From Terriglobia bacterium (GTDB taxonomy: Bacteria; Acidobacteriota; Terriglobia; 20CM-2-55-15): DNA of 64,000 bases. This document shows positions 39,859-54,103 of this stretch, piece by piece. The stretch covers positions 1 to 64,000 of the forward strand of contig CBDCLE010000020.1 of the NCBI GenBank assembly GCA_965218585.1, read 5' to 3'. The notes under the pieces are model-generated. The model worked only from the letters and a program-made list of their open reading frames with translations. It did not search any database and was not told the DNA's origin. Position 1 is the first letter of the stretch. Every line of letters begins with the position of its first letter. Both the position numbers and the translations under genes were made by a program.

Positions 39859-40215
39859 ATGTTTTGTCCGACCTGTGGATCTGAATACCTAGAGGGAATC
39901 ACCGAATGCGGAGACTGTGGTGTCGCACTTGTCGCCGAACTGCCTAAATTCGAAGACAACGATGAGCCCTTGAAGATGATCCGGATCACTGGACCGACCG
40001 AGGCGCCGATGATTGAAGAACTGCTCGAACACAATGGGATCGACTCGATTCTGCAAGGTGAGGCGTCGGCAGCCACAATTCCAGCCACTGGCCAACTCAA
40101 CGCAGTGCGTATCTGGGTGCCCGCCTCCAATGCGGAAAGGGCCTACGAAATAGTCGAGGCATTTTTTGACGATGAGAGCGAGAAACTTGAAGAGAATGAG
40201 GGTCCGGTTGAATAG
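39859..40215 (+). CDS. Zinc-ribbon / DUF2007 domain protein
   Basis: MFCPTCGSEY...CGDCGVALV, LEHNGI, IWVP. Confidence 0.82.
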   Translation: MFCPTCGSEYLEGITECGDCGVALVAELPKFEDNDEPLKMIRITGPTEAPMIEELLEHNGIDSILQGEASAATIPATGQLNAVRIWVPASNAERAYEIVEAFFDDESEKLEENEGPVE

Positions 40216-40256
40216 TGGGTATTGTCCGAGACCCGCGTAGTGTAGGAATATAAGGC

Positions 40257-40388
40257 ATGGATAATTTTACGCTCGCCGTAGTTATAGGTATCGTAGTCGT
40301 TCTTTGCGTTCTGTTGGGCCTCGTAATAGTGGACAAGGGTGCGCCCGATCCCGACCAGATTCCTAAGTCCCGAGGAAGAAAGTCGTAA
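40257..40388 (+). CDS. Small single-pass membrane protein (43 aa), absent from the ORF track
   Basis: MDNFTLAVVIGIVVVLCVLLGLVIVDKGAPDPDQIPKSRGRKS: a 21-aa hydrophobic helix with a basic tail, filling the gap between co-oriented genes. Confidence 0.65.
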   Translation: MDNFTLAVVIGIVVVLCVLLGLVIVDKGAPDPDQIPKSRGRKS

Positions 40389-40458
40389 GTCTGGCCGTTG
40401 TTTCGGCGTTGCCAAAGATCAATTCCACAGATTCCTCGTCATCGATATCAGTTCCGAT

Positions 40459-41340
40459 ATGTCCGAATTGTTCGGGGAACCTCGAGACACGACCGGTATC
40501 TGGCGCGTGGGTACCGCTGGTTGGAGCTATCCACCCGGCAGTGGGTCCGGGACCTGGACGGGTGTCTTCTATCCGCTCAAGAAGACTGACGAACTGAAGT
40601 TCTATTCCCGCTACTTCAACACTGTTGAAGTCAACTCCACTTTCTACAGGCCCTGCTCGAGGGAAGTTGCCCGGGGTTGGGTTCGCCGCACGCCGGATGA
40701 GTTCGAGTTCACGGTTAAGGTCTGGCGCGAGTTTACTCATACGCGTGGATCATGGTCTCGAAGCGAAATCGATCTGTTCAGGGAAGGGCTGGAGCCTTTG
40801 GCCGAGAGTGGCAAGCTGGGGTGTATTCTGTTTCAGTTTCCCGCTTCGTTCCACCGGTCGGAGGAAAATCTGGCCTATCTGGAACGGGTACTTTCCCTGT
40901 TCAGCAAGTTCCCATCGGTCGTCGAGTTGCGCCACCGATCCTGGAATGATTCGTCGGATCTGATCACAACCATGGGCGCGACGCCGGCTTTTATCGATGA
41001 ACCCAAGTTTGCTACTTCCATACGGCAGATCCTTCGGCCCTCCGGAGTGATGCTCTATGTTCGGCTTCACGGGCGCCGCAAGGACACGTGGTGGACCCAT
41101 GAGAACCGGGAGGAGCGTTACGACTACCTCTACAGTGGCGAGGAAATCGATCGTTACGCGGGAGTGCTCAAGCAGTTGTCCCAAGACAGGCCTATCGAAA
41201 AGGCTTACCTGATATTCAACAACCATCCGGGTGCGAAGGCCGTAGCGAACGCCGTTACGCTGCGCAGCAAGCTCGAAATCCCGAACCCGACGCCGCTTCC
41301 CGCGCCTTTGCTCGAACGCTTTCCGGAGCTGGGCGCATAA
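40459..41340 (+). CDS. DUF72 family protein
   Basis: VGTAGWSY, VEVNSTFY, QFPASF, ELRHRSW, YVRLHGR, YDYLYS, FNN. Confidence 0.92.
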   Translation: MSELFGEPRDTTGIWRVGTAGWSYPPGSGSGTWTGVFYPLKKTDELKFYSRYFNTVEVNSTFYRPCSREVARGWVRRTPDEFEFTVKVWREFTHTRGSWSRSEIDLFREGLEPLAESGKLGCILFQFPASFHRSEENLAYLERVLSLFSKFPSVVELRHRSWNDSSDLITTMGATPAFIDEPKFATSIRQILRPSGVMLYVRLHGRRKDTWWTHENREERYDYLYSGEEIDRYAGVLKQLSQDRPIEKAYLIFNNHPGAKAVANAVTLRSKLEIPNPTPLPAPLLERFPELGA

Positions 41341-41478
41341 ATTTAATTTATAGCGCGAATCGGCCCCACAGCTGGACTCGCGGAACTAAGAACCTCGAGA
41401 AGGTTGGTGAAATAAAGCGCTTTTTCTTGCACATTTAGCATGAAAAGGACAAGCTACCGGGAGGAGTACGCTAAGAAT

Positions 41479-42057
41479 ATGAGATTCGTTTCCCTGTGCT
41501 TGTTTCTGGCCGGCGTTCTTCTGATCCTGCCATCTGTGACCAATGCCCAGCAGTTGCCTGGCGGACGAAACACCGACTTGGAAATGCTGGAAAAGGGCTT
41601 CGATGTGCTGGGAACCAATGTGCCCAGCTTTCCCCCGGGCTTTTGGAGTACACCTGAAGGAAAGGCCAGGCTGGAACAGCTTCAGATGGAGCGTTTCAGG
41701 GAGAGCATCGAGGAGTTGGCCGAGCTGGGTGAAGAAGACTGGACCGCTCAATATGTTTCGACTTCGGATCGGTCGGTTCGCCGGGAATTTGAGGACAGGG
41801 TGGAGGATCTGGAGGAAGTCACCGACGGGTTGATCAAGTTCTTCGAATGGAGATTTGCTGCCGAGCCGATCGAAGTTGAAGAGCCTTCCCGGGAGGGTAT
41901 TCGAGAACGGGTGGTACAGATGACTCCGATGCTGGGACAGATCCTTGAGGCGATCGACACTCTTCAGGCCGGTGGCGGCATTCAGGTTCAGCAGTTCGTC
42001 ACAATGCGGGAGAACCTGGCCCATATCCACACACTCAGTCGAATCCTGCGCGACTGA
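41479..42057 (+). CDS. Secreted hypothetical protein
   Basis: Signal peptide (TNA|QQ), helical acidic mature region. Confidence 0.65.
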   Translation: MRFVSLCLFLAGVLLILPSVTNAQQLPGGRNTDLEMLEKGFDVLGTNVPSFPPGFWSTPEGKARLEQLQMERFRESIEELAELGEEDWTAQYVSTSDRSVRREFEDRVEDLEEVTDGLIKFFEWRFAAEPIEVEEPSREGIRERVVQMTPMLGQILEAIDTLQAGGGIQVQQFVTMRENLAHIHTLSRILRD

Positions 42058-42142
42058 ACCTGCTCGAAAGATCGCCCGAAATCTTCCTGTTTCCCCGACC
42101 GACACGACCGGCACGGTCCGGGGTGCTTCGATCAACTGGTTA

Positions 42143-42736
42143 ATGAACATGTGGACAAGCCGAATCGTCGCGTTGTTTTTCGTCCTGGGTACCTTACATG
42201 TGTCAGCAGAGGCGCAGGATCCCGTTCGTGTCCGGATCCGAACAGGGATGGGCAACGTCGACGTTGAACTGTACCCGGACAAGGCTCCCGGGACGGTGGA
42301 AAATTTTCTCAGATACGTGGATGGTGGTTTCTATCAAGGCGGGCGTTTTCACCGTACGGTCACGCTCGACAATCAACCGAACAACGACGTGCTGATCGAG
42401 GTCATTCAGGCTGGCATTAACCCGGAGCGGGACGGGGAAGGTTTCGACCCTATTCCGCTGGAGCGGACCAGTGTGACCGGGCTCCGGCACGAAGACGGCG
42501 TGATCTCGATGGCCCGGTTCGAGCCCGATTCAGCGCGGTCGGATTTCTTCATCTGTATCGAAGATCAGCCGTCGCTGGATTTCGGTGGGGCCCGCAACCC
42601 GGACGGGCAGGGATTTGCAGCGTTCGGGAAGGTCATCGACGGTATGGACGTTGTGCGCGCGATTCAGGGCGCGCCCGTCGAGGAGCAGCGTCTCACCCCA
42701 CCGGTGGGTATCCTTTCGATAGAGCGGCTCCGATAG
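42143..42736 (+). CDS. Cyclophilin-type peptidyl-prolyl isomerase, exported
   Basis: APGTVENFLRY, FHR, VIQAG, SMAR, DFFI, FAAFGKVIDGMDVV. Confidence 0.92.
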   Translation: MNMWTSRIVALFFVLGTLHVSAEAQDPVRVRIRTGMGNVDVELYPDKAPGTVENFLRYVDGGFYQGGRFHRTVTLDNQPNNDVLIEVIQAGINPERDGEGFDPIPLERTSVTGLRHEDGVISMARFEPDSARSDFFICIEDQPSLDFGGARNPDGQGFAAFGKVIDGMDVVRAIQGAPVEEQRLTPPVGILSIERLR

Positions 42737-42779
42737 CCGGAGAATAGCCGCGGAGCCCGGAGCGGGAGTCCGACACCCG

Positions 42780-43835
42780 TTAGAAGGACGCCAATGCGTT
42801 AAATGGGCTTGCCGTGCCTCCCCGGATCGGATTGATCTGAATGGCTGTCAGGAATTCCCATTGCCGCAATCGCGCAGCTGTCGCCGCAACTTCTTTCAGG
42901 TAGCCGTTATCGACGATGGGCAACCCCAGATTCACCTGTGTGAGTTGATGTATGGGGCGGTTGATGCCTTGAACACCGGATGGCTGAACATCGTTCACGG
43001 CGTCACCAATCAAAATCGCCACATCCCTTTCACGTAGCCAGGGCAGAACCGATGCGTGCAAGCCCGCTCCCCCCTGTCCGTATCGCCAGGGCCCTTCAGC
43101 TTCACGTTTCGCCCAGCGACCCGTGCGAACAAAGAGCGCATCGCCGCTGCCGATTTTAACGCCGGCAAATTCCTCCCAGGCTTCGAGGTCGGACACGTAA
43201 ATGGGCGTGCTCGGCTCCAACCAGTCGACGCCTCGCATCAGGGGCATATCCACCAGGACACCCCGGGTCACATAGGACGTGCCCATACGATCGATCGCCA
43301 GGTCTTCGCAACCCGTGGCCGTAAGATTCTGCGGATATCCGTTAAAGATCACGTATTCGCCATCTATTTCAGTTCGGTAATGGCAAAGCGCATCCAGATG
43401 AGAAAGCATACCGTCGTGAAGAGAGAACTGTATTTCATCCAGTGCAAAACTGGGTTCGCCGGTAACCGGATCGAGTCGACTCATCCAGTGTTCTGTGGGT
43501 CCGAAGGTCTGGCTATCCAGCGTTTTCTCCTCGGTCACAAAATGCTGCAGGGTTACGGTTTCACCTGCCCGCACTAACGAGGCAGCCTGCCGGGTCTTTT
43601 CCGGCGTGATCAGATTCAAAGTGCCGCGTTGATCGTCCGGTCCCCACCTTCCCCAGTTGGACAATTCCTGCTCCCAATTACTCAGGGTCTCAAGAGTAAC
43701 CAGAACAGACGGGTCCTGGGTCGACGGATGCATCTGAAATTCCTGCGCCGCCATCGCATCGAACAGGAACAACGCGAGCATCATGCAAACTGCTCTCATG
43801 GCGGTCTTTGGTTGTGCCTTAAAGATTTTAGTCAT
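42780..43835 (-). CDS. Cyclase family (kynurenine formamidase-like) metal hydrolase, exported
   Basis: NWGRWGPDDQRGTLN, HDGMLSHLDALCH, RGVLVD, GDALFVRTG, GGTASP. Confidence 0.88.
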   Translation of the reverse strand: MTKIFKAQPKTAMRAVCMMLALFLFDAMAAQEFQMHPSTQDPSVLVTLETLSNWEQELSNWGRWGPDDQRGTLNLITPEKTRQAASLVRAGETVTLQHFVTEEKTLDSQTFGPTEHWMSRLDPVTGEPSFALDEIQFSLHDGMLSHLDALCHYRTEIDGEYVIFNGYPQNLTATGCEDLAIDRMGTSYVTRGVLVDMPLMRGVDWLEPSTPIYVSDLEAWEEFAGVKIGSGDALFVRTGRWAKREAEGPWRYGQGGAGLHASVLPWLRERDVAILIGDAVNDVQPSGVQGINRPIHQLTQVNLGLPIVDNGYLKEVAATAARLRQWEFLTAIQINPIRGGTASPFNALASF

Positions 43836-43867
43836 GGGACCAGACTTCCACAGCCTTCCTCACCAAA

Positions 43868-45253
43868 TCATCTCTGTGGCACGACGCGAAACTCTTCGTT
43901 GGGAGGAGGGATCACAGCGATCTCCGTGGGGCGCTCTAGCTGGGGCACCCAGTCGTATGGAACGCGGTATGCACGGTAGACACGGTTGCTCCGGTTCGGA
44001 ACTGTGGTGAAATACGGATTGACGTACTCCCAGACGATCTCATTGTCGCTGGTCACCTCGAACATGCGTCCGATGGCTCCTTCATTGATCAGCGTGTTGC
44101 CATTCGGCAACCGCTGGGCCGAGCTGATGTACTGACTGAAGAACGTGACCCGTTCCTGGCCAGCGATGGAATACTCCCAGACCTTTTCGAACGTTACCGG
44201 GTTCACCTCGAGGACGCGTGAGCCCAAGCGTCGGACGGTTCCCCTTCCGGTCGGCGCCGACAGGTTCGGAGCGCCGTAGCCAGCCGCCCCGCCATTGTCA
44301 AAGACCAGCAGGTTGCCGGCGCCGGGGAGCCCGGTCGGGATGATGTGCGGTTGATGCTGGCCCACGACCTGGCCCAGCCGGGCCAGGGCCGGGTCATCCC
44401 GGTAGTCGGGTCCCATCTTCCAGACGACGTCGCCGTCACGGTCCACGATGGCGATGATGTTCGACTGGCGACTGCTCCACATAACATTCTCAGGATGGAA
44501 CCGCTCATCTCCCTCGTCGTACCAGTGGTTCGGGCCGACGTATGCCATGGCGTTGATGTGCATCCAGTCGGCGGTGCCTCGTGCTTCGCTCCAGCCGGGA
44601 TAGCGGTAGATCGTGTTGCGCGCCTCGCCGCTGAAACCGAACTCGTCGATATGGTCGCTGGCCAGCCACTCCCATGTGATGTCGCCATCCCAGGTGACCT
44701 CCAGAATGTAGTCGTCTTCGAGCGTCTTGTCGGTGATTTCCGGATTCAGGACGTCGCGATGCGCTAGAACGAGCGTCCGCCCCTGGTCTACCATTGGCTC
44801 TGCGTCGGGCGCGTAGTAGCCGACGGGGCTTCCCTCACGCTGCCAGTCGTGGTGCATCCGGACCATCCACCTGGGTTCTTCGCCTTCCTCTTCCACCAGT
44901 TCGGTGCGATCGAACTTCCAGACGATCTCGCCGTCCCAGTCCACCTGGATGAGTTCCAGCGCCTCCTGCCGCCCCCGCCGGGCGCTGGAGCCACCGACGA
45001 GATAACCGCCCGGCAGGACACGAACCGGCGCTGAAGTTACTTCCGTCCAGTGCTTCAGCACGTTGCCGTTCATGTCCATAAGCACAGTGCCGCCCTCTCT
45101 CTCCCCCTCCCCCCGAATTTCGAAGACGGTGTAGCCGCTCCAGGTCTTGTCCGGGTGGAACACGGTGGTGCCCGTCGGGAAAACGGACTGAAAAGTGAGC
45201 GATAGCGACGGCGTCAGAACGAGAGCAGCCGCCAGCATCATGAGTCTTTTCAT
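43868..45253 (-). CDS. Aryl-sulfate sulfotransferase (ASST)-like beta-propeller protein
   Basis: HHDWQR, DWMHIN, GQHQPH, VFDNG, SSAQRLPNGNTLI, VYRAYR. Signal peptide. Confidence 0.85.
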   Translation of the reverse strand: MKRLMMLAAALVLTPSLSLTFQSVFPTGTTVFHPDKTWSGYTVFEIRGEGEREGGTVLMDMNGNVLKHWTEVTSAPVRVLPGGYLVGGSSARRGRQEALELIQVDWDGEIVWKFDRTELVEEEGEEPRWMVRMHHDWQREGSPVGYYAPDAEPMVDQGRTLVLAHRDVLNPEITDKTLEDDYILEVTWDGDITWEWLASDHIDEFGFSGEARNTIYRYPGWSEARGTADWMHINAMAYVGPNHWYDEGDERFHPENVMWSSRQSNIIAIVDRDGDVVWKMGPDYRDDPALARLGQVVGQHQPHIIPTGLPGAGNLLVFDNGGAAGYGAPNLSAPTGRGTVRRLGSRVLEVNPVTFEKVWEYSIAGQERVTFFSQYISSAQRLPNGNTLINEGAIGRMFEVTSDNEIVWEYVNPYFTTVPNRSNRVYRAYRVPYDWVPQLERPTEIAVIPPPNEEFRVVPQR

Positions 45254-45427
45254 TTCATCTCTCCTCTTTTGCTGCTGCGATGCCAGACGAAGGGCGATGT
45301 AGTCAACCCAGGACTGCTCGACATGCCGGATTCCGTGCTTGGCAGTTGGATAATAAGACTACACGCGGGACTTGAGGTCAATCAAAACGGCAATAAATCA
45401 CCCGCGAATGAACCCGCTCCTTGCTAA

Positions 45428-46270
45428 TCAAAAAAACTGGGTCGATACCTCGTTCTCGATGCAGATGTATTCGATCATGTTTGTGTCGAGCATAACGCGC
45501 TGGTTCACCCGGACGGTGAACGGCTCCGTGTATGCCATGGGGTCTTCGATGGTGACATCGATTTCCAGATTTCCGTAGTTCACTCGACGGAACCGCTCAG
45601 TTATCTTCCCTGACGAGGTCAACGGGCTGCCGTTGTAATCGAGCCACACATCATCCCTAAAACCGATCGTTTCCACGACCAGCGTGTCTCCCTCCCATCT
45701 GCCCACCGAGTAACCAAACCACCACGGTAACGGGTCGTTGTCGGGCAAGGACCGACCATCTGTGAAGATCTGCCGAATACCCGAGTTGGCTTCATTCAGA
45801 ATGACGATCACATCCGGAGTCTGGATGATCTTCCTCGGAAAGATATGCGTGTGATACAGCATGTGGCCCATCGGCAGACAGTGAGCGTCGGGGTTGCCTT
45901 GCGCATCGTCCGCCATGCGCTGTTGTCCGATCTCTTCAGCCCATTCTGTATACGGAACCTCCATCTGGGCTCCGATCTCAAAGAAGTTCGCGACAGGAGG
46001 CGAACCTGGCGGTGGGCTCGGGCGTTCCCCAGCAGCACCCCGACCCAGTTGTCCCCCTACCGGAGCACGCTGGCCACCGACGTTCTCCCAAAGGCCCGTC
46101 AAATCCGGTCTGCCTTCGCTTGTCCTGGGTATTGGCCCTTCCAGATCCGGTTCTCCGTCAGGCATTCTGGGGACTCCGGACGTGGGAAAAGCCGCCCACT
46201 GCGCCGAGAGCGAACCCGAAACGAGAGTCAAGGCAGCGATCAGACCAGCCGTACGCAGCAACATTTTCAT
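45428..46270 (-). CDS. Secreted hypothetical protein
   Basis: Signal peptide, GRPDLTGLW, NPDAHCLPMG, GYSVGRWEGDTLVVET, EYICIEN. Confidence 0.8.
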   Translation of the reverse strand: MKMLLRTAGLIAALTLVSGSLSAQWAAFPTSGVPRMPDGEPDLEGPIPRTSEGRPDLTGLWENVGGQRAPVGGQLGRGAAGERPSPPPGSPPVANFFEIGAQMEVPYTEWAEEIGQQRMADDAQGNPDAHCLPMGHMLYHTHIFPRKIIQTPDVIVILNEANSGIRQIFTDGRSLPDNDPLPWWFGYSVGRWEGDTLVVETIGFRDDVWLDYNGSPLTSSGKITERFRRVNYGNLEIDVTIEDPMAYTEPFTVRVNQRVMLDTNMIEYICIENEVSTQFF

Positions 46271-46507
46271 CTTCAGCCTCCCGATTGGACGCGGTTGTAA
46301 CTATTGGAACAGTCTCCCGGATGACAGAGTCCGGAGTTTTTCCAAAAAGCAAGTCTATAGACCGAATGGGATTGGAAGCAATCAGAACGTCAGTGTTGCA
46401 AGGTGAGGCTGTTCACTGTTGGAATCCATTACAGTTTCTCTCCGATTATTGAAAAGGTAAGCTCCCTGGCGTAGGTTCCGGAAGACGCTAATCGAGCAGG
46501 AATAGTT

Positions 46508-46546
46508 CTCAACTTCCGAGAAGATGATTTCTCGGGACTTGACCTC
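46508..46546 (+). repeat. dif/Xer-like recombination site, copy A
   Basis: CTCA-ACTTCCGAGAA-GATGAT-TTCTCGGGACT-TGACCTC. 11-6-11 dyad core at 46512-46539. 35/39 identical to copy B. Confidence 0.8.
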
Positions 46547-46570
46547 TGTGGGAGGTAGGAGCGTTGGTTC

Positions 46571-46909
46571 CTAATTCTTGTTCCTGAACGGCAACGTAAA
46601 CTCGTCGTCCTGAATGTTGCACATCATTCTCGCGTGCACCTTGTACTCTCGCCACAGCTTGCCCGCTTCCTCGTCATCCGGCAAGAAACACCGACCCAGA
46701 TACATTCCATCTCTGGGCGTTGTTGAATACTTTACGTAATAGCAATCCGGACGGTCGGCAAGATCACCGAGAAGGCGGCTCAACAAGTCTTGGTCAGTCG
46801 CTGTAAAACAGAGCTTCTTTCGTGAGAACTCTTGTTCATCATTCCAGCCTGCACCTCGACGTCCCATGAAGACACCATTGTGAGTCACATGGAATGTATC
46901 TGAGTTCAA
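46571..46909 (-). CDS. Hypothetical protein (112 aa) carried between direct dif-like repeats
   Basis: Strong RBS AGGAGGTGA just upstream of TTG at 46909. ...KKLCF...CYYVKYS...DGMYLGRCF...QDD. Confidence 0.75.
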   Translation of the reverse strand: MNSDTFHVTHNGVFMGRRGAGWNDEQEFSRKKLCFTATDQDLLSRLLGDLADRPDCYYVKYSTTPRDGMYLGRCFLPDDEEAGKLWREYKVHARMMCNIQDDEFTLPFRNKN

Positions 46910-46945
46910 GAACTCACCTCCTGAATGGGCCTGTTCAACATTTAG

Positions 46946-46984
46946 CTCAACGTCCGACAAGATGATTTATCAGGACTTGACCTC
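46946..46984 (+). repeat. dif/Xer-like recombination site, copy B
   Basis: CTCA-ACGTCCGACAA-GATGAT-TTATCAGGACT-TGACCTC. Core at 46950-46977. Direct repeat of copy A at a 438-bp period. Confidence 0.8.
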
Positions 46985-46989
46985 GGAAA

Positions 46990-47132
46990 TCAGGGGACCG
47001 GCACCCGCATGGCATGCACCAAGGACATGCCGAGCACGTTGAGTAAAAATTGGCCGTCATCTTCATGTCTTCGGTCGTTAGCGCCAAATGGTGCACGCCA
47101 TGGGTCAGCGCCACGGGTTTTGTATATGCCAT
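46990..47132 (-). pseudogene. Truncated, frameshifted VOC/glyoxalase family gene
   Basis: MAYTKPVALTHGVHHLALTTEDMKMTANFY, then a shifted frame NVLGMSLVHAMRVP. Ends 5 bp from repeat B. Confidence 0.7.
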
Positions 47133-47228
47133 GGAAGCCTCCGTCAGGGAACGGGTACTGTGGACCGAAATGTAGTATTGGAGGCCGCCATGTTGCACAA
47201 TATGCCCCGAACCAAATTGGGAAAATCA

Positions 47229-48185
47229 ATGGCACCGTCCGAAACACGTATCGATGTACACCACCATGTGCTGCCTGAATTTTACAAGGACGCGCAGCGT
47301 GCCGCAGGTATTTCCGGCAGCGCATATCGCGGGTTTCCGGAATGGACACCGGAGAAATCGCTCGCGCTGATGAACGACCACCAGATCGCCTCCACCATTT
47401 TGTCGTTTACCGCGCCGGGCATCTATTTTGGCGACCCTGTCCAGACCTGCGATCTCGCGCGCCGGTGCAACGACTATCTGGCTGCCCTCGCGCAGGCCCA
47501 TCCCGGGCGTTTCGGGGGATTTGCGTTCCTTCCCTTACCGGATATCGATGCGTCCCTGGCGGAAATTGAACGGCTCGTGGACGATCTGAAACTCGACGGC
47601 ATTACGCTCCTGACCAGCGTCGATGAGCGCTATATCGGCCATCCGGATTTCGAGCCGGTCTATGAAGAGCTCAACCGGCGGCGGGTGGTAACCTTTATTC
47701 ACCCCTGTTATCCGCCGGGAACCGAGGCACGGGGCTGGAACATCCCGCGCATGATGATCGACTTCCCGTTCGAGACCACTCGCGTGGCCACCAATCTGAT
47801 CCTCAACGGAGTGATGGAACGACACCGGGACATCCCGTTTATCCTGTCACATGCGGGCGGCACGTTACCGTTCCTCGCCCATCGCATCGCCATCTTCGAC
47901 AAGAAAATATCGCTCCAGGACAACTACCCGGAAGGGGCACTCGCTTACATGAAACGGTTTTATTTCGACACAGCGCTGTCGGGCAACAAGGTACCGCTCG
48001 ATGCCTTGTCTGGGATTATAGATCCCTCGCACATTTTGTTTGGCAGCGATTACCCCTACGTGTCGGAAGATGTCGTCGCCATCGAGACCGACGGGTTGGA
48101 TAGCTACGTCGGCTATGATGAGACGACACACGCGATGATCAATCGCGGCAATGCCGAAAAACTGTTTCCGCGCTTCGCGGCTTAG
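47229..48185 (+). CDS. Amidohydrolase_2 family (ACMSD / aromatic decarboxylase-like)
   Basis: IDVHHH, FIHP, FETTR, LSHAGG, FYFDTA, LFGSDYP, GNA. Confidence 0.9.
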   Translation: MAPSETRIDVHHHVLPEFYKDAQRAAGISGSAYRGFPEWTPEKSLALMNDHQIASTILSFTAPGIYFGDPVQTCDLARRCNDYLAALAQAHPGRFGGFAFLPLPDIDASLAEIERLVDDLKLDGITLLTSVDERYIGHPDFEPVYEELNRRRVVTFIHPCYPPGTEARGWNIPRMMIDFPFETTRVATNLILNGVMERHRDIPFILSHAGGTLPFLAHRIAIFDKKISLQDNYPEGALAYMKRFYFDTALSGNKVPLDALSGIIDPSHILFGSDYPYVSEDVVAIETDGLDSYVGYDETTHAMINRGNAEKLFPRFAA

Positions 48186-48430
48186 GCCGATTGCACGATA
48201 GCCATTTCGGAAGCTTTACGAATTGCGGGGCGGTCCATCAGCCGTTTGCGCCAACGTAAAGGATTGCGACAGCCTCGATCGAGACCGGACCTGAAGTGTC
48301 GAACCTGCATTCGTCGCCTCGTTCGTTTCAGGTTCATCATCGATGACCGCTAAGGGGATACAGGCCCTGAGACCCCATCAAGGCGCTGGCACCCGTTCCT
48401 TCAGTTCTTCAAACCAGTTCAGGACAACGT

Positions 48431-48559
48431 TTATTTGGGGCGCGTTTTGAATCGGGAGGCAGCTTGGTTCAGGGAGTTGTGTAGTTCTTCCCAAGCTTTC
48501 TGCAGGCCTGGTTTCAGATCGTCCCAAGCTTCAGCAGTCGTTTCTTTCAATTCGCTCAA
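48431..48559 (-). pseudogene. C-terminal remnant of a small coiled-coil protein, cut by IS3
   Basis: Minus strand [42 protein letters not shown] begins exactly at the IS3 left end. Confidence 0.6.
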
Positions 48560-48613
48560 TGAACCGCCCCGGGTTTTCCGGAGACTCCATTTCTTGAGAG
48601 GATGGGAGTCATC

Positions 48614-49872
<1,259 letters not shown>

Positions 49873-49875
49873 TAG

Positions 49876-51612
49876 CCCGCATATTTCACCGATAGGACCA
49901 GAAAAGGCCGCCCTGTCTGGCATAAAGCGTTTTGAAATAAACGTTTAACAAGCCAAACGGAGACGGCCCTTATGAGAACAGAGTGTAACCAAACGACGTT
50001 CGAATTTCACGGACTTCTTCAACGAAAAGTGAAGGCGCGTTTTGACGGCGGAAAGATCACCTCCGACGCTGGGGTTCTGCTGTTGAGGGAAGTGGAAAAG
50101 CGAACGGGTCTGATCGCCGGACTGGCCGAGTGTTTCAGGGATTACCGGGACGCGAGGTTGATCGAACACACGGTGAGCGAGTTATTGGGGCAGCGCGTCT
50201 ACGGACTCTGTCTGGGCTACGAGGATCTGAACGATCATGACCAACTGCGGACCGATCCGATGCTGGCCGTGGCGGTGGATAAGGCCGATCCACTGGGGGA
50301 GAAGCGGCGGCAGGCCCGAGACCGGGGAAAAGCGTTGGCGGGCAAGTGTACGCTGAACCGGTTGGAACTGACCGGGGAGCAAGTCGATGGGAAGGAGCGG
50401 TACAAGAAGATTGCCATGGACCCGGACAAGATCGACCGCTGGATGGTGGATGCATTTGTGGCGGCTCACGGATCGGCGCCCGAGGAGATTGTTCTGGACC
50501 TGGATGCGACCGATGATCCGATCCATGGCCATCAGGAAGGACGGTTCTTTCACGGCTACTACGGCAACTACTGTTATCTGCCGCTCTACATCTTTTCGGG
50601 AGAGCATCTGCTATGCGCCCGGTTGCGGTGCTCCAATGTCGACGGTGCGGACGGCGCCGTCGAGGAATTGAACCGCATCATCGGCCAGATCCGGCAGAGC
50701 TGGCCGGAGGTGTCGATTATCATCCGGGCCGACTCGGGCTTTTGCCGGGATGAATTGCTGAGTTGGTGCGAGGCCCACCAGGTCGATTACGTGGTGGGTC
50801 TGGCCAAGAACGATCGGCTCAAGCGCGAGATCGCTGAATCGATGAGTCAGGCCGAAGCCGAGTTTAACGACACCGGGAAACCGGCGCGGGTGTTTAACGA
50901 TTTCCGGTATCGCACTCGGAAGAGCTGGACCTGCACCCGACGCGTCATCGGCAAGGCCGAGTTCCTGGAGAAAGGCGCCAATCCTCGATTCGTTGTGACC
51001 TCACTGTCGCCGGAACGCCTGGACGCCCGCGCCCTCTATGAAGACTTTTACTGTGCGCGGGGCGACATGGAAAATCGCATCAAGGAACAGCAGTTGGATC
51101 TATTCGCCGACCGGACCAGCGCGGCAACCATGCGCGCCAATCAACTCCGGCTCTATCTGTCCTCGGCCGCCTACATGCTCCTGCACGCGTTACGCCGTCT
51201 GGGACTGAAGAATACCGATCTGGCCCGCGCTCAGTGCCAGACGATCCGCTTGAAGCTCCTCAAGATCGGAGCTCAAGTCCGTCTGACGGTTCGCAACATC
51301 TGGATCTCCATGTCGGAAGCCTATCCCTACGCCGAGGTCTTTGCCCTCGTCCATCGAAACCTGCAGGCGCTTCCTCTGCGCTGCTGAGAACCGACCCGAT
51401 CCCCTGCGCCAAAATCGACTCGCTCTTTTCGGCTCCGCCGAGGTTTGTCTCAGTGCGTTTCGTCACCCTCTTCTGAACCCGAAAACGCAGCAACTCCCGC
51501 TTGTCGACACCGCCGAGTCACGCCACACATGCCCAATTCGAACCCAGATCCTCCCGAATCCGATTCTTACTGCCCAAATCCCCCTGATCGCCGGACTGGT
51601 GAAACATGCGGG
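49876..51612 (+). mobile_element. IS1380-family insertion sequence (1737 bp)
   Basis: IRs CCCGCATATTTCACC / GGTGAAACATGCGGG. CTAG duplicated at 49872-49875 and 51613-51616. Confidence 0.93.
49972..51387 (+). CDS. IS1380 transposase
   Basis: FDGGKITSDAG, GYEDLND, LDLDATDD, RADSGF, YCARGDMENRIKE. Confidence 0.95.
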   Translation: MRTECNQTTFEFHGLLQRKVKARFDGGKITSDAGVLLLREVEKRTGLIAGLAECFRDYRDARLIEHTVSELLGQRVYGLCLGYEDLNDHDQLRTDPMLAVAVDKADPLGEKRRQARDRGKALAGKCTLNRLELTGEQVDGKERYKKIAMDPDKIDRWMVDAFVAAHGSAPEEIVLDLDATDDPIHGHQEGRFFHGYYGNYCYLPLYIFSGEHLLCARLRCSNVDGADGAVEELNRIIGQIRQSWPEVSIIIRADSGFCRDELLSWCEAHQVDYVVGLAKNDRLKREIAESMSQAEAEFNDTGKPARVFNDFRYRTRKSWTCTRRVIGKAEFLEKGANPRFVVTSLSPERLDARALYEDFYCARGDMENRIKEQQLDLFADRTSAATMRANQLRLYLSSAAYMLLHALRRLGLKNTDLARAQCQTIRLKLLKIGAQVRLTVRNIWISMSEAYPYAEVFALVHRNLQALPLRC

Positions 51613-51616
51613 CTAG

Positions 51617-51773
51617 CCAGTCGGTCACTATCCTTGGCGAACTCTTCCGGAAGGGTCTTGATCGCGACGTCACGACCAAGTTTCGTGTCCTCGGCACGCC
51701 ACACTTCCCCCATACCTCCTTTACCCAAGAGCGAGAGGAACACTTAGTGGCCGAGTTTGGTGCCGGATTCCAT
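51617..51773 (-). pseudogene. N-terminal remnant of a Hanks-type Ser/Thr protein kinase
   Basis: [52 protein letters not shown], with an internal TAA and cut at the IS1380 CTAG. Confidence 0.88.
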
Positions 51774-51848
51774 GTTTAAAGTGTGTCGCTGAAATAACCG
51801 TGAAAAACTCGGTAAAGGACACTAAGGCAGGAAGTTAGGCGCTATTAA

Positions 51849-51891
51849 ATTCTCAGGTCCTCACAAACGACCTTGTCGGACGTTGAGAATC
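51849..51891 (-). repeat. dif/Xer-like recombination site, copy C (inverted relative to A and B)
   Basis: Minus strand ATTCTCA-ACGTCCGACAA-GGTCGT-TTGTGAGGACC-TGAGAAT. Core at 51856-51883. Left arm identical to copy B. Confidence 0.72.
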
Positions 51892-52442
51892 CGATCTCTA
51901 GAATAAAAAGTCCTAATCTTAGTTCTTGTATTTAATTTCAAGCACTTAGACGTGTACCGCCTATCCGGACATGTGGAATTTGCCCAAGGATCCCGAAGTC
52001 CGCGTCCATCCGGGAAACCTGAAATGTTCCGCAACAATTACCCGCGAAAAACGCCGTTTCGTTTACCGATATGTGCGACAGACGCTCGGGCCTTTTTGTT
52101 TGCTGCTCAACAGGTTCCCAGGACCCTCACGTTTCTCGCTCAACCTGCCCGGACAGTGTCCACAACATCCTCAGATTTGAAGTGCCCGCACGGCCGCGCG
52201 CGGGTTGATATAACACCCATATAACGGCACTTGTCAGAGCTGCCATAGTCGTCAGCCCCTGCTTATATCGCTTATCCGCACGCAAGATCAAACTCTAATA
52301 CGGCTTGATGGTCGTGTGGCCGTCCAGGTAGTCGAAGTAGATCGGCCGGCCGGTCGAGAGCAGGTAATGGAGGTTCCGGAGGTTCCGTTCGCGCCGCGCG
52401 GTACCCCTCCAGTTTGCGTACCGCTCGAAAGTCAGCGCCTGG

Positions 52443-53106
52443 CTTGGTTTCTTCGGCCCGCAGTCCGCTGTAGATACCGTCGGCCCAGACATAGACCCAG
52501 CGATCGGCATCCAATCGCTCCTCGCATCCCCGGCGGTACTGCTCGGCCCAGACCTGTTTCAACCGCGATACCGTGCTCGCCGACAGGCCCTGCGCCTGGG
52601 GTCCGACAAGAACTTTTAGAGCGTCACCCATCTCGCCGCTGGAGACGCCTTTCAAATACAACCACGGCACCGCTGCTTCCAGCGATTTCGTTTTCCGAAT
52701 GTAGGGAGGTACCAGGGCCGACCGGAACGTTACCGGGTCGCCAGTCTTCGCTCGGACTTTCGGGATCTGGACCGTTACCGGCCCCAAACCGGTCTGCAGT
52801 TCACGTTCAGGCAGATAACCGTTGCGCACCACCCCGGCGTTGCCCGTCTCGGTTCTCCGATCGCCGTGGTGGGATAGCAGTTCCGCCAATTCGGTTTCCA
52901 CCGCGCGTTGGATCAGTTGCTGAGCTCCAACTCGTAGTAGCTCTGTTATCGGATCCTCAATCGTCTCTCGACCCTCCGGTCCATTCACGTTACTCTTGCT
53001 CATAGTGGCGTATCTCCCTTGGTTGCTTTGAAGTCTGGTAAACAACAAATCAACCAGATACGCCGCTCTTCCTCAATCCCTTAAACACCAGATTCGGTTA
53101 TAACTC
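52443..53106 (-). mobile_element. Truncated IS256-family element (one end plus 5' part of the transposase, ATG 53003)
   Basis: VRNGYLPER, IPKVR, YLKGVS, WADGIY, then homology stops. Terminal GAGTTATAACCGAATCTGGTGTTT at 53106. Confidence 0.85.
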
Positions 53107-53454
53107 GATGGCGGCGCCTTCGCGCTTAAAGACGGCGTTGCCGAGATAGTGGTCCCCGTGGTCTTGCCCGTTGACGACCCATTTGATAGGGTCGGCCGTT
53201 TTCTTGCGGATCTCCGCCAGCAGCGCTTCGGCGGCGCGCCGATTTCCCTGGGAGTCGACGATGAGTACCCCTTCCTCGGTGATCAGCACGGTGGAGTTGG
53301 AAGCTCCACCCGTGTAGTAGAAGTAGAGGTCGGGGCCGACCGGTGTGAGCGAGAAGGCGCTCTGCGCCTTCATCGCAGACCACTCGCCGCTGACGGCGAT
53401 TCCCAGCAGCAGCGCCAGCAGGACCGTACGCATCATGGGCATGCGCAGTGTCAT
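53107..53454 (-). pseudogene. Metallo-beta-lactamase-fold protein, 3'-truncated by IS256
   Basis: Signal peptide, NSTVLITEEGVLIVD, VVNGQDHGDHYLGN, then runs into the IS end. Confidence 0.8.
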
Positions 53455-53626
53455 GGTGCTTTCCTTTCAGCCGGATTTAGTTTTTTCCCTTCCGGCTCGT
53501 GAGTATACATCCATCTGCCTCTGGCTGAGCCTTTCCAGCGTACGATTATCTCCGGAGGCCAGTTCGCAACTCCGGCAGAGACATTTAATGCATGTTGTTG
53601 CATCGACCGGACCGGTTGAGCCGGCA

Positions 53627-53649
53627 GACATTGTTGGACGTTGAGAATC
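53627..53649 (-). repeat. Partial copy D of the dif-like repeat
   Basis: GACATTGTTGGACGTTGAGAATC versus GACCTTGTCGGACGTTGAGAATC at copy C (21/23). The second arm is degenerate. Confidence 0.6.
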
Positions 53650-53953
53650 ATCCTGATCCACTGTTCGCATTCCAGTCGCCGGCGACGCATTGTCCTTTCG
53701 ACCTTCAAAATCTGAGTTTCCGATTTCAAATTTCGTTTTCCGGCTTTCGAAACCCGCTTCGGACTTTGCAAACTAACCGGGCAAGCTCCGTACTATGGCT
53801 TCCCAGATTCGGTTTCGCCAATAGATCTACGCTTTGTGCTGAGCAGACGTTTCCGACATGCCGGATCCTTCGCTCACCGTGTCGGTAAGTGACGATTGGC
53901 GAGTAAGGTCAGCTATCGGACGGAGGGCGTCTGAGATACCGCGCCTTGCGCTC

Positions 53954-54103
53954 TCAAGGCTGGGGATTCTCGTCGGTATCTTCGAGGCGATTCCGCAGTT
54001 CGTCAATACGCCGGTCGAGGTCTTTCTGCTTGAGCGACATGCGGACCGTGTACGCGAAGAAGATCACGAAGAAAGCCGAGTAAGCAGCGACGAGCCACGT
54101 CAT
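53954..54103 (-). CDS. ccmD: CcmD family heme exporter protein (49 aa), absent from the ORF track
   Basis: MTWLVAAYSAFFVIFFAYTVRMSLKQKDLDRRIDEL...; ATGA overlap with the ccmC stop. Confidence 0.85.
   Translation of the reverse strand: MTWLVAAYSAFFVIFFAYTVRMSLKQKDLDRRIDELRNRLEDTDENPQP

Follow-up and report, generated by a model that had tools for sequence, protein, structure and literature searches.

The dif-like sites that recur in a 64,000-bp stretch of DNA from a Terriglobia bacterium (GenBank assembly GCA_965218585.1, contig CBDCLE010000020.1; here contig C20, positions 1-64000, in the following called the window) probably serve as joints in a gene-cassette system that is restricted to its lineage and depends on a tyrosine recombinase. 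The window contains one small, decayed array of this system, which is largely wrecked by insertion sequences (ISs). An earlier, sequence-only reading had considered the sites as a possible chromosomal dif with serially captured modules; the sites indeed delimit exchangeable gene modules and resemble dif modules in this function, but they are not dif. The analysis comprised the source assembly (G000; 4.55 Mb, 26 contigs, 95% complete), its congeners G001 to G004, a comparison set of 35 genomes of the family and, for a pattern scan, 401 genomes of the class.

Concerning the sequence of the sites, an iterated position weight matrix (PWM) of 40 bp yielded the consensus TTCTCA ACGTCCGASAA (6-bp spacer) TTWTCAGGACT TGAGAA/TGACCT, i.e., a bulged dyad of 34-40 bp with inverted arms around a conserved asymmetric spacer, as in lox-type sites, and with two spacer classes. 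At a threshold of 14 bits, 86 sites are found in G000 (83-89 depending on the threshold), distributed over 28 loci on 18 contigs, with 11 singletons and at most 11 sites per locus. None of the 86 lies wholly inside a gene as called by our own open reading frame (ORF) caller. In the reversed genome, which served as control, there was no PWM match of at least 10 bits, and half-site scores of at least 20 occurred at 0 per Mb. In addition, there are 27 orphan half-sites, many of them broken in the spacer. Among 320 sites (all of G000 plus fetched stretches of G001 and G003), the spacer is GATGAT in 229, here called the tail class, and nnTCGT in 49, the head class; in G004, four of the five tail sites scored carry CCGGAT, the spacer being homogeneous within the genome.

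In the window, the sequence-only reading had noticed recurring copies including an inverted third and a partial fourth, and these are real. Sites A (46506-46545, + strand; 59.9 bits, and 32.4 with an arms-only model that leaves out the spacer) and B (46944-46983, + strand; 61.1 bits) belong to the tail class with the spacer GATGAT, whereas site C (51850-51889, - strand; 58.8 bits) belongs to the head class with the spacer GGTCGT and is inverted relative to both; all three are full 40-bp dyads (rounded, 59-61 bits). Site D (53627-53649, - strand; 26.8 bits) retains only the left half of its head-class dyad and counts among 13 orphan left halves; it is broken by the end of an IS30-like element. 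The direct-repeat pair at 46508 and 46946 agrees at 90% over 39 nt, with the inverted copy at 51853 and a 23-nt copy at 53627.

The distribution of the sites is narrow. A degenerate pattern matches ten of the 401 class genomes, namely all five genomes of the own genus (44, 132, 86, 11, and 2 matches), four of the five of the sister genus (1-4 matches each), and one genome outside the family (G320, score 10), which was set aside as a probable chance match. An exact-pattern scan recovered two metagenome contigs, both with kinase context, and no match in viral sequences; no RNA holder was listed. The cassette system is confined to two genera. Several arrays in G000 start just downstream of tRNA genes (C9:66128-66554, C15:67669-67744, C24:146551-149035).

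The two spacer classes differ in their surroundings. Head sites precede a putative promoter, placed by its position only, and the start of a Ser/Thr kinase gene; tail sites follow either the C-terminal codons of this kinase or cargo genes and stack as direct arrays. Kinase C-terminal DNA adjoins 105 of the 229 GATGAT sites and none of the 49 nnTCGT sites, whereas the leader or start of the kinase adjoins 30 of the 49 nnTCGT sites and none of the 229 GATGAT sites. The 239 neighbour pairs comprise 157 direct tail-tail pairs, 40 heads facing a tail, 28 back-to-back pairs of head and tail, and 14 others; a gene ends at the tail site in 163 of 224 cases and starts after the head in 28 of 35. An intact unit, consisting of a head, an 881-aa Pkinase/PD40 gene, and an inverted tail, exists in G002. 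Elsewhere, kinase stubs vary in length from 24 to 78 bp at tails and from 41 to 273 bp at heads.

The kinase family itself is amplified in 34 of the 35 family genomes (up to 130 matches), including genomes without the site. In related genera (L273-L285: G007, G047, G048, G013, G021) it forms clusters and reaches very high copy numbers, its members sharing a conserved leader motif; two of these genomes exhibit other palindromic repeats 3' of the kinase stop codon. In genus g4, a further motif precedes the kinases; it was rejected as another type of site, being mainly kinase leader or promoter without a clear dyad. Concerning the cargo, a cassette gene of 80 aa is common to G001, G002, and G003 (L089, L207, L236), always before a tail site; at the DNA level, its copies in G001 and G003 are 96% identical.

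Modules bounded by the sites reappear in other contexts. Removal of multi-copy sequences left 192 shared segments with a length of 350 bp or more. In 57 of them, one or both ends lie no more than 45 bp from the centre of a site; the other 135 comprise, among others, IS copies that had escaped masking and segments truncated where a fetched stretch ends. Exact site-to-site units at different loci measure 1327 bp (99.3% identity) and 423 bp (95.5%; altogether three pairs, two distinct units). Linkage is lost across the spacer: at distances of 26-40 bp, 1% of the position pairs exceed z=4, in comparison with 45-71% within the right side and 1-32% within the left (genome-stratified repeat run). Pairs that share both flanks have identical sites in six of six cases, and positions 1-3 go with the left flank in all 12 pairs, whereas positions 8 and 15 do not. 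In single-flank events at 98% identity or more (all from G001, counted by eye from such pairs among 12+9 pairs), a crossover in the spacer fits five of eight.

The sites are also targets of ISs. Ends within 60 bp of a site were found for 4 of 59, 3 of 33, 1 of 9, and 1 of 15 copies of four elements, as compared to an expectation of 0.45%; for IS3, the count is 0 of 17. IS30-like elements are situated at the spacer centre of sites in G000 at C3:347536-348778, C13:7107-8376, and C14:31853, the full element on C3 splitting its site as TGTC-IS-TCGT; the family name is the one presumably fitting the transposase. IS91-like elements with a tyrosine recombinase lie in the head spacer in both G003 loci (L026, L030), with a 5-bp repeat, and 20-27 bp from sites in all four G001 loci read (L023, L027, L031, L039).

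As to the enzyme, in G001 two head sites standing back to back enclose a gene for a recombinase of 316 aa, which is divergent from one of the two. The protein matches PF00589 (E=3e-27), remains below the XerC/XerD cut-offs, and has XerA/XerD as nearest solved relatives; its branch is long and its placement in the tree unsure. Eight of 30 other homologues have flanks that share a 32-mer at 24 or more matches, all inverted (control maximum 23), one of the eight, L137, having the appearance of a terminator-type repeat. At L160, there are three sites with nearly the arms of G000 (one arm identical or nearly so), the same offset, and differing spacers. Between -160 and -60, on the same strand as in G001, arms-only scores of at least 8 occurred in 7 of 50 non-redundant homologues and of at least 13 in 3 of 50, an interval fixed from the G001 copy after some matches had been seen, and among kin that are not independent. 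The 15 other windows around the homologues contained at most two scores of 8 or more and none of 13 or more, and the background in 3245 upstream windows of G000 was 0.8% and 0.09%, respectively. The 316-aa family is a candidate for the cognate enzyme, with chances that we consider about even; passages of PMC3414803 contain nothing on it. A recombinase clade with the recognition helix SQNVVW (L122, L125, L126, L130, L133, L135, L139) is flanked by its own, different inverted motif, with further copies nearby, and is probably a sister cassette system.

Other enzymes were set aside. The IS91-like tyrosine recombinase is not present in G000, and the IS91-like elements use the sites as targets. Eight serine recombinase matches exist in G000, none of them listed beside an array, and the other tyrosine recombinases of G000 are linked to tRNA genes or islands, broken, or without close relatives among the loci examined. 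A split Cre-like gene (G000 C11:137817-138800) occurs in only G000 and G003 among the 35 genomes, and the G003 copies have no adjacent site; in G003 this gene is intact and 98% identical. IntI is considered below.

Several observations weigh against the cassette interpretation. Besides the choice of the upstream interval mentioned above, the full 40-bp PWM gave no match at 60 homologue loci of the recombinase, and an inverted flank pair with at least 24 matches occurred in 2 of 22 in a second batch of homologues. No homologue of the 316-aa recombinase was found in G000, G003, or G004, and G002 has a broken copy only, while G000 and G003 hold most of the sites. The closest homologues (68-70% identity) are mostly without a site (L293 and L295 none, L294 10.2), and no such site was found at the G007 copy. 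Concerning the exchange points, three of the eight single-flank events differ in the inner arm (positions 8, 15, or 26-27), which is not predicted by a strict spacer crossover and counts against a plain Cre-type reaction; furthermore, arm positions are poorly linked to their own flanks. The joint expected from excision of the segment between A and B was not found among the joints listed (15 of 112) in public-run contigs, which drop rare variants. Finally, the interval corresponding to the array in G001, G002, and G003 consists of 5.7-10.5 kb of differing accessory genes without any site.

If the cassette interpretation holds, the founder unit would have been a head site followed by a promoter, a Ser/Thr kinase gene with a WD40-like propeller, and an inverted tail site, the two spacer classes presumably preventing recombination between head and tail, as the spacer-homology rule of tyrosine recombinases suggests. 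Further cassettes of one or few genes plus a tail site may enter at tail sites through tail x tail recombination, which would lead to direct arrays downstream of one head, as with attC cassettes behind attI. Illegitimate recombination within the kinase gene may have been the first step in the capture of some cargo, leaving kinase stubs beside the sites. The enzyme would most likely be the family of about 316 aa, Xer/Cre-like, sporadically present and acting in trans, with G000 as an enzyme-less holder similar to clusters of attC sites lacking integrases (CALINs). In the window, C would be the head, B and A the tails, and D a split second head, in an array riddled by site-targeting ISs.

On the minus strand, the order in the window is the split head D, a metallo-beta-lactamase (MBL) gene cut by IS256, head C, leader and 53 kinase codons, IS1380, IS3, a cargo fragment fused to a kinase C-terminus, an amidohydrolase gene on the opposite strand, a vicinal oxygen chelate (VOC)-like fragment with the kinase end RVPVP-stop, tail B, a gene of 110 aa, and tail A. 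The IS30-like end in the spacer of D (53561-53626, - strand) matches C3:347513-347595 at 91%. The MBL-fold gene (53107-53454, - strand; PF00753, E=4e-6, residues 48-113) is followed by the IS256-family fragment (52443-53106, - strand; PF00872; 15 copies), and, by visual comparison, the sequence around 52080-52270 looks like the 3' terminus of an IS91/ISCR-like element (as in L034 and L038), which would be another IS remnant. The conserved leader and N-terminal remnant of the Ser/Thr kinase (51617-51849, - strand; 53 codons, premature stop, cut by IS1380) exhibits 85% identity to an intact kinase start and matches many other head loci. Then follow the IS1380-family element (49872-51616, + strand; 33 near-full genome copies) and the IS3-family element (48560-49871, + strand; 17 near-full copies), the latter cutting a short coiled-coil-like fragment (read by eye) that precedes a C-terminal kinase remnant (48377-48440, - strand; ending in VLNWFEELKERVPAP and stop). 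The tail site of this remnant has decayed to the point where its half-site score is no longer significant, and a fifth site at 48340-48376 was rejected on its score.

The amidohydrolase gene (47226-48185, + strand; 319 aa, PF04909, E=4e-35) is intact. Its homologue in G002 (81% DNA identity) has no site around it, as expected if the amidohydrolase is captured cargo. The VOC/glyoxalase-like fragment in front of B (46990-47132, - strand) is frameshifted in translation and weakly supported as to its identity (Glyoxalase, E=0.14); its end at B is explained by its fusion to the final codons of the kinase, and 46946-47007 has matches at more than ten other loci. Between B and A lies an intact gene of about 110 aa as a single-gene cassette (46571-46894, - strand; start codon uncertain) from a widespread unnamed family with 269 homologues, the best of 75% identity. 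It has no Pfam domain, none is shown among the homologues listed (120 of 269), and no ESM Atlas match was found. Among the 35 family genomes it occurs in G000 alone, where a second, broken copy exists at C4:203879. Outside the array, the arylsulfotransferase-like gene at 43868-45253 has a homologue between two tails in G003. Contigs from public runs agree with the window at site A (X4, X5), to the right of B (X1, X5), and at D (X2, X5), with 0-1 differences, such that the window is not an assembly artefact; the best-matching run may be the source sample itself. The three ISs, the kinase remnant, and the MBL fragment of the sequence-only reading are retained, as is the VOC piece in its position, if not firmly in its name, whereas its description of the zone as a patchwork of fragments only does not apply to the amidohydrolase and the gene between A and B.

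The array is situated between two core genes, a zinc-ribbon/DUF2007 gene (39859-40215) and ccmC (54100), and the accessory genes that occupy the interval 40216-54099 differ in each of the congeners compared; in G004, 16 kb were fetched, which did not reach the left flank and contain no site. The variable region starts at about 40.3 kb and not at the outermost site A, and the relatives hold a variable, site-free stretch between the same core genes in place of the proposed synteny around a single site. The locus is therefore an old hot spot where a site-bearing unit landed, and not a dif capturing modules.

Taken as an explanation of the sites themselves, a chromosomal dif or terminus is practically excluded. 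Copies are present genome-wide, as described above, and a separate, single canonical dif was found at C10:37495-37522 in a genome search for XerD-arm-like sites, using what we take to be the XerD-arm motif. With up to three mismatches, it occurs in 24 of the 35 family genomes, exactly once in 20 of these; in six genomes, its distance from xerD is 33-57 kb. The GC skew of C20, in a contig-level test, is positive or flat at 46-54 kb, where a switch had been proposed, and FtsK orienting polar sequences (KOPS) number 5/3 on the + strand and 2/1 on the - strand left/right of 50 kb. The C10 dif, where KOPS converge weakly, does not coincide with a clean switch of the skew either, so that skew is a weak marker in G000. 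Moreover, ccmC is separated from dif by 66, 174, 241, and 299 kb in four relatives (and by 1.27 Mb in a fifth), so that the window may be part of the terminus region in a broad sense. Action of the host XerC/XerD on the sites, i.e., a chromosomal dif-module system of the Acinetobacter type with a drifted XerD arm, fares better and is nevertheless unlikely. The 11-6-11 geometry with AA-N6-TT is consistent with it, the left arm of A-C has 6-7 of its 11 bases in common with the XerC arm of the genuine dif, ISs insert beside the sites, and both enzymes are intact in G000 and present in the congeners and in G017 as examined. However, A-C match the XerD arm at 5-7 of 11 bases in either orientation, while the real dif keeps this arm across the family, and the arms-only score of the true dif is 2-2.6 in comparison with 30-37 for A-C. 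The predominance of direct repeats among neighbour pairs (157 of 239) is likewise at variance with pdif modules, which, according to passages of PMC13141974, must alternate C and D.

The sites could also be leftover protein-binding or regulatory sites of the amplified kinase family, with homology-driven exchange between repeated site and kinase-stub DNA (40-300 bp), helped by ISs, and with the G001 recombinase as a passenger. Such an origin without a dedicated recombinase has a modest share of the probability, somewhat more than XerC/XerD, given the exchange points outside the spacer in three of eight events, the variable stub lengths, the kinase amplification in genomes lacking the site, and the lack of the enzyme in most site holders. 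It does not account for two spacer classes that are each conserved while arm positions vary symmetrically, for the strict orientation of heads and tails, or for similar arms beside recombinase homologues in unrelated genera. An integron-like reaction, in which the site acts as a bulged hairpin analogous to attC and is cut near its outer end, appears very improbable. Recombination of attC relies on a folded bottom strand, as stated in an excerpt of PMC8352920. The consensus folds into a hairpin with two single-base bulges (z from -1.0 to -3.0 for A-C), and the behaviour of positions 1-3 as against 8 and 15 would suit a cut at the outer end; however, covariation is absent at the paired variable positions 15/26 and 14/27, IntI is absent from G000 and G004, and the three intI genes of G001-G003 have no site within about 5 kb.

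With somewhat less than an even chance, and accordingly put forward as a tentative proposal, the cassette system might constitute a third bacterial gene-cassette platform: a roaming family of 316-aa tyrosine recombinases with clade-specific, two-class lox-like sites, for which a kinase gene became a portable vector in two acidobacterial genera, with cargo that is captured inside the kinase, then stacked, and exchanged among dozens of arrays in the chromosome as well as across species, and with strand exchange reaching beyond the 6-bp spacer. If this is right, 90-130 programmed joints per genome organise much of the accessory DNA in these bacteria. The candidate enzyme makes the cassette interpretation testable with one gene and two 40-bp substrates, and a recombinase family whose site varies with the recognition helix, together with natural incompatible spacer classes, would supply orthogonal Cre-like tools. 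In literature searches, outside subscription literature and supplements, a description of this system was not found, the papers retrieved concerning only pdif, attC, and recombinase annotation; new here are the location of the true dif, the counts of heads, tails, and kinases, the crossover test with its exceptions, and the candidate recombinase.

Among known systems, similarity is considerable to the dif modules of Acinetobacter, in which, according to passages of PMC13141974 and PMC9947245, a pdif site consists of a XerC arm, a 6-bp spacer, and a XerD arm, C and D modules alternate, and matching spacers recombine; chromosomal dif-module islands are described in a portion of PMC12907356. Both possess 11-6-11 dyads between small gene modules, spacer classes, extra chromosomal copies beside one true dif, enzyme-less modules, and modules in new contexts. 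Unlike in dif modules, however, there is no XerD arm, the arms reach 14-17 bp and are offset by one base, the arrays behind one inverted head consist mostly of direct tails, the founder is a kinase gene, and the candidate enzyme is not XerC/D. With integrons and CALINs, the system shares one head site plus promoter followed by gene-plus-site units in a single orientation, a candidate enzyme gene divergent from a head site (in G001), and arrays that persist without the enzyme. Yet the sites are dyads of fixed length (34-40 bp), whereas attC sites exhibit a covarying stem, a variable loop, and an invariant GTT core; the GTT is missing here (position 8 is variable, as judged without an attC model), no IntI is linked, there are about 28 arrays per genome, and cargo often lies within kinase stubs. 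The sites resemble Cre/loxP in their 13-8-13-like dyad with asymmetric spacer, in the presumably incompatible spacer classes that flank a unit, and in the single small tyrosine recombinase proposed for them, but differ in forming natural arrays of hundreds of sites, with offset arms, exchange apparently not always in the spacer, and a candidate enzyme that is not resident. In function, the cassette system resembles the arrays of integrons and of dif modules, and it belongs to neither group.

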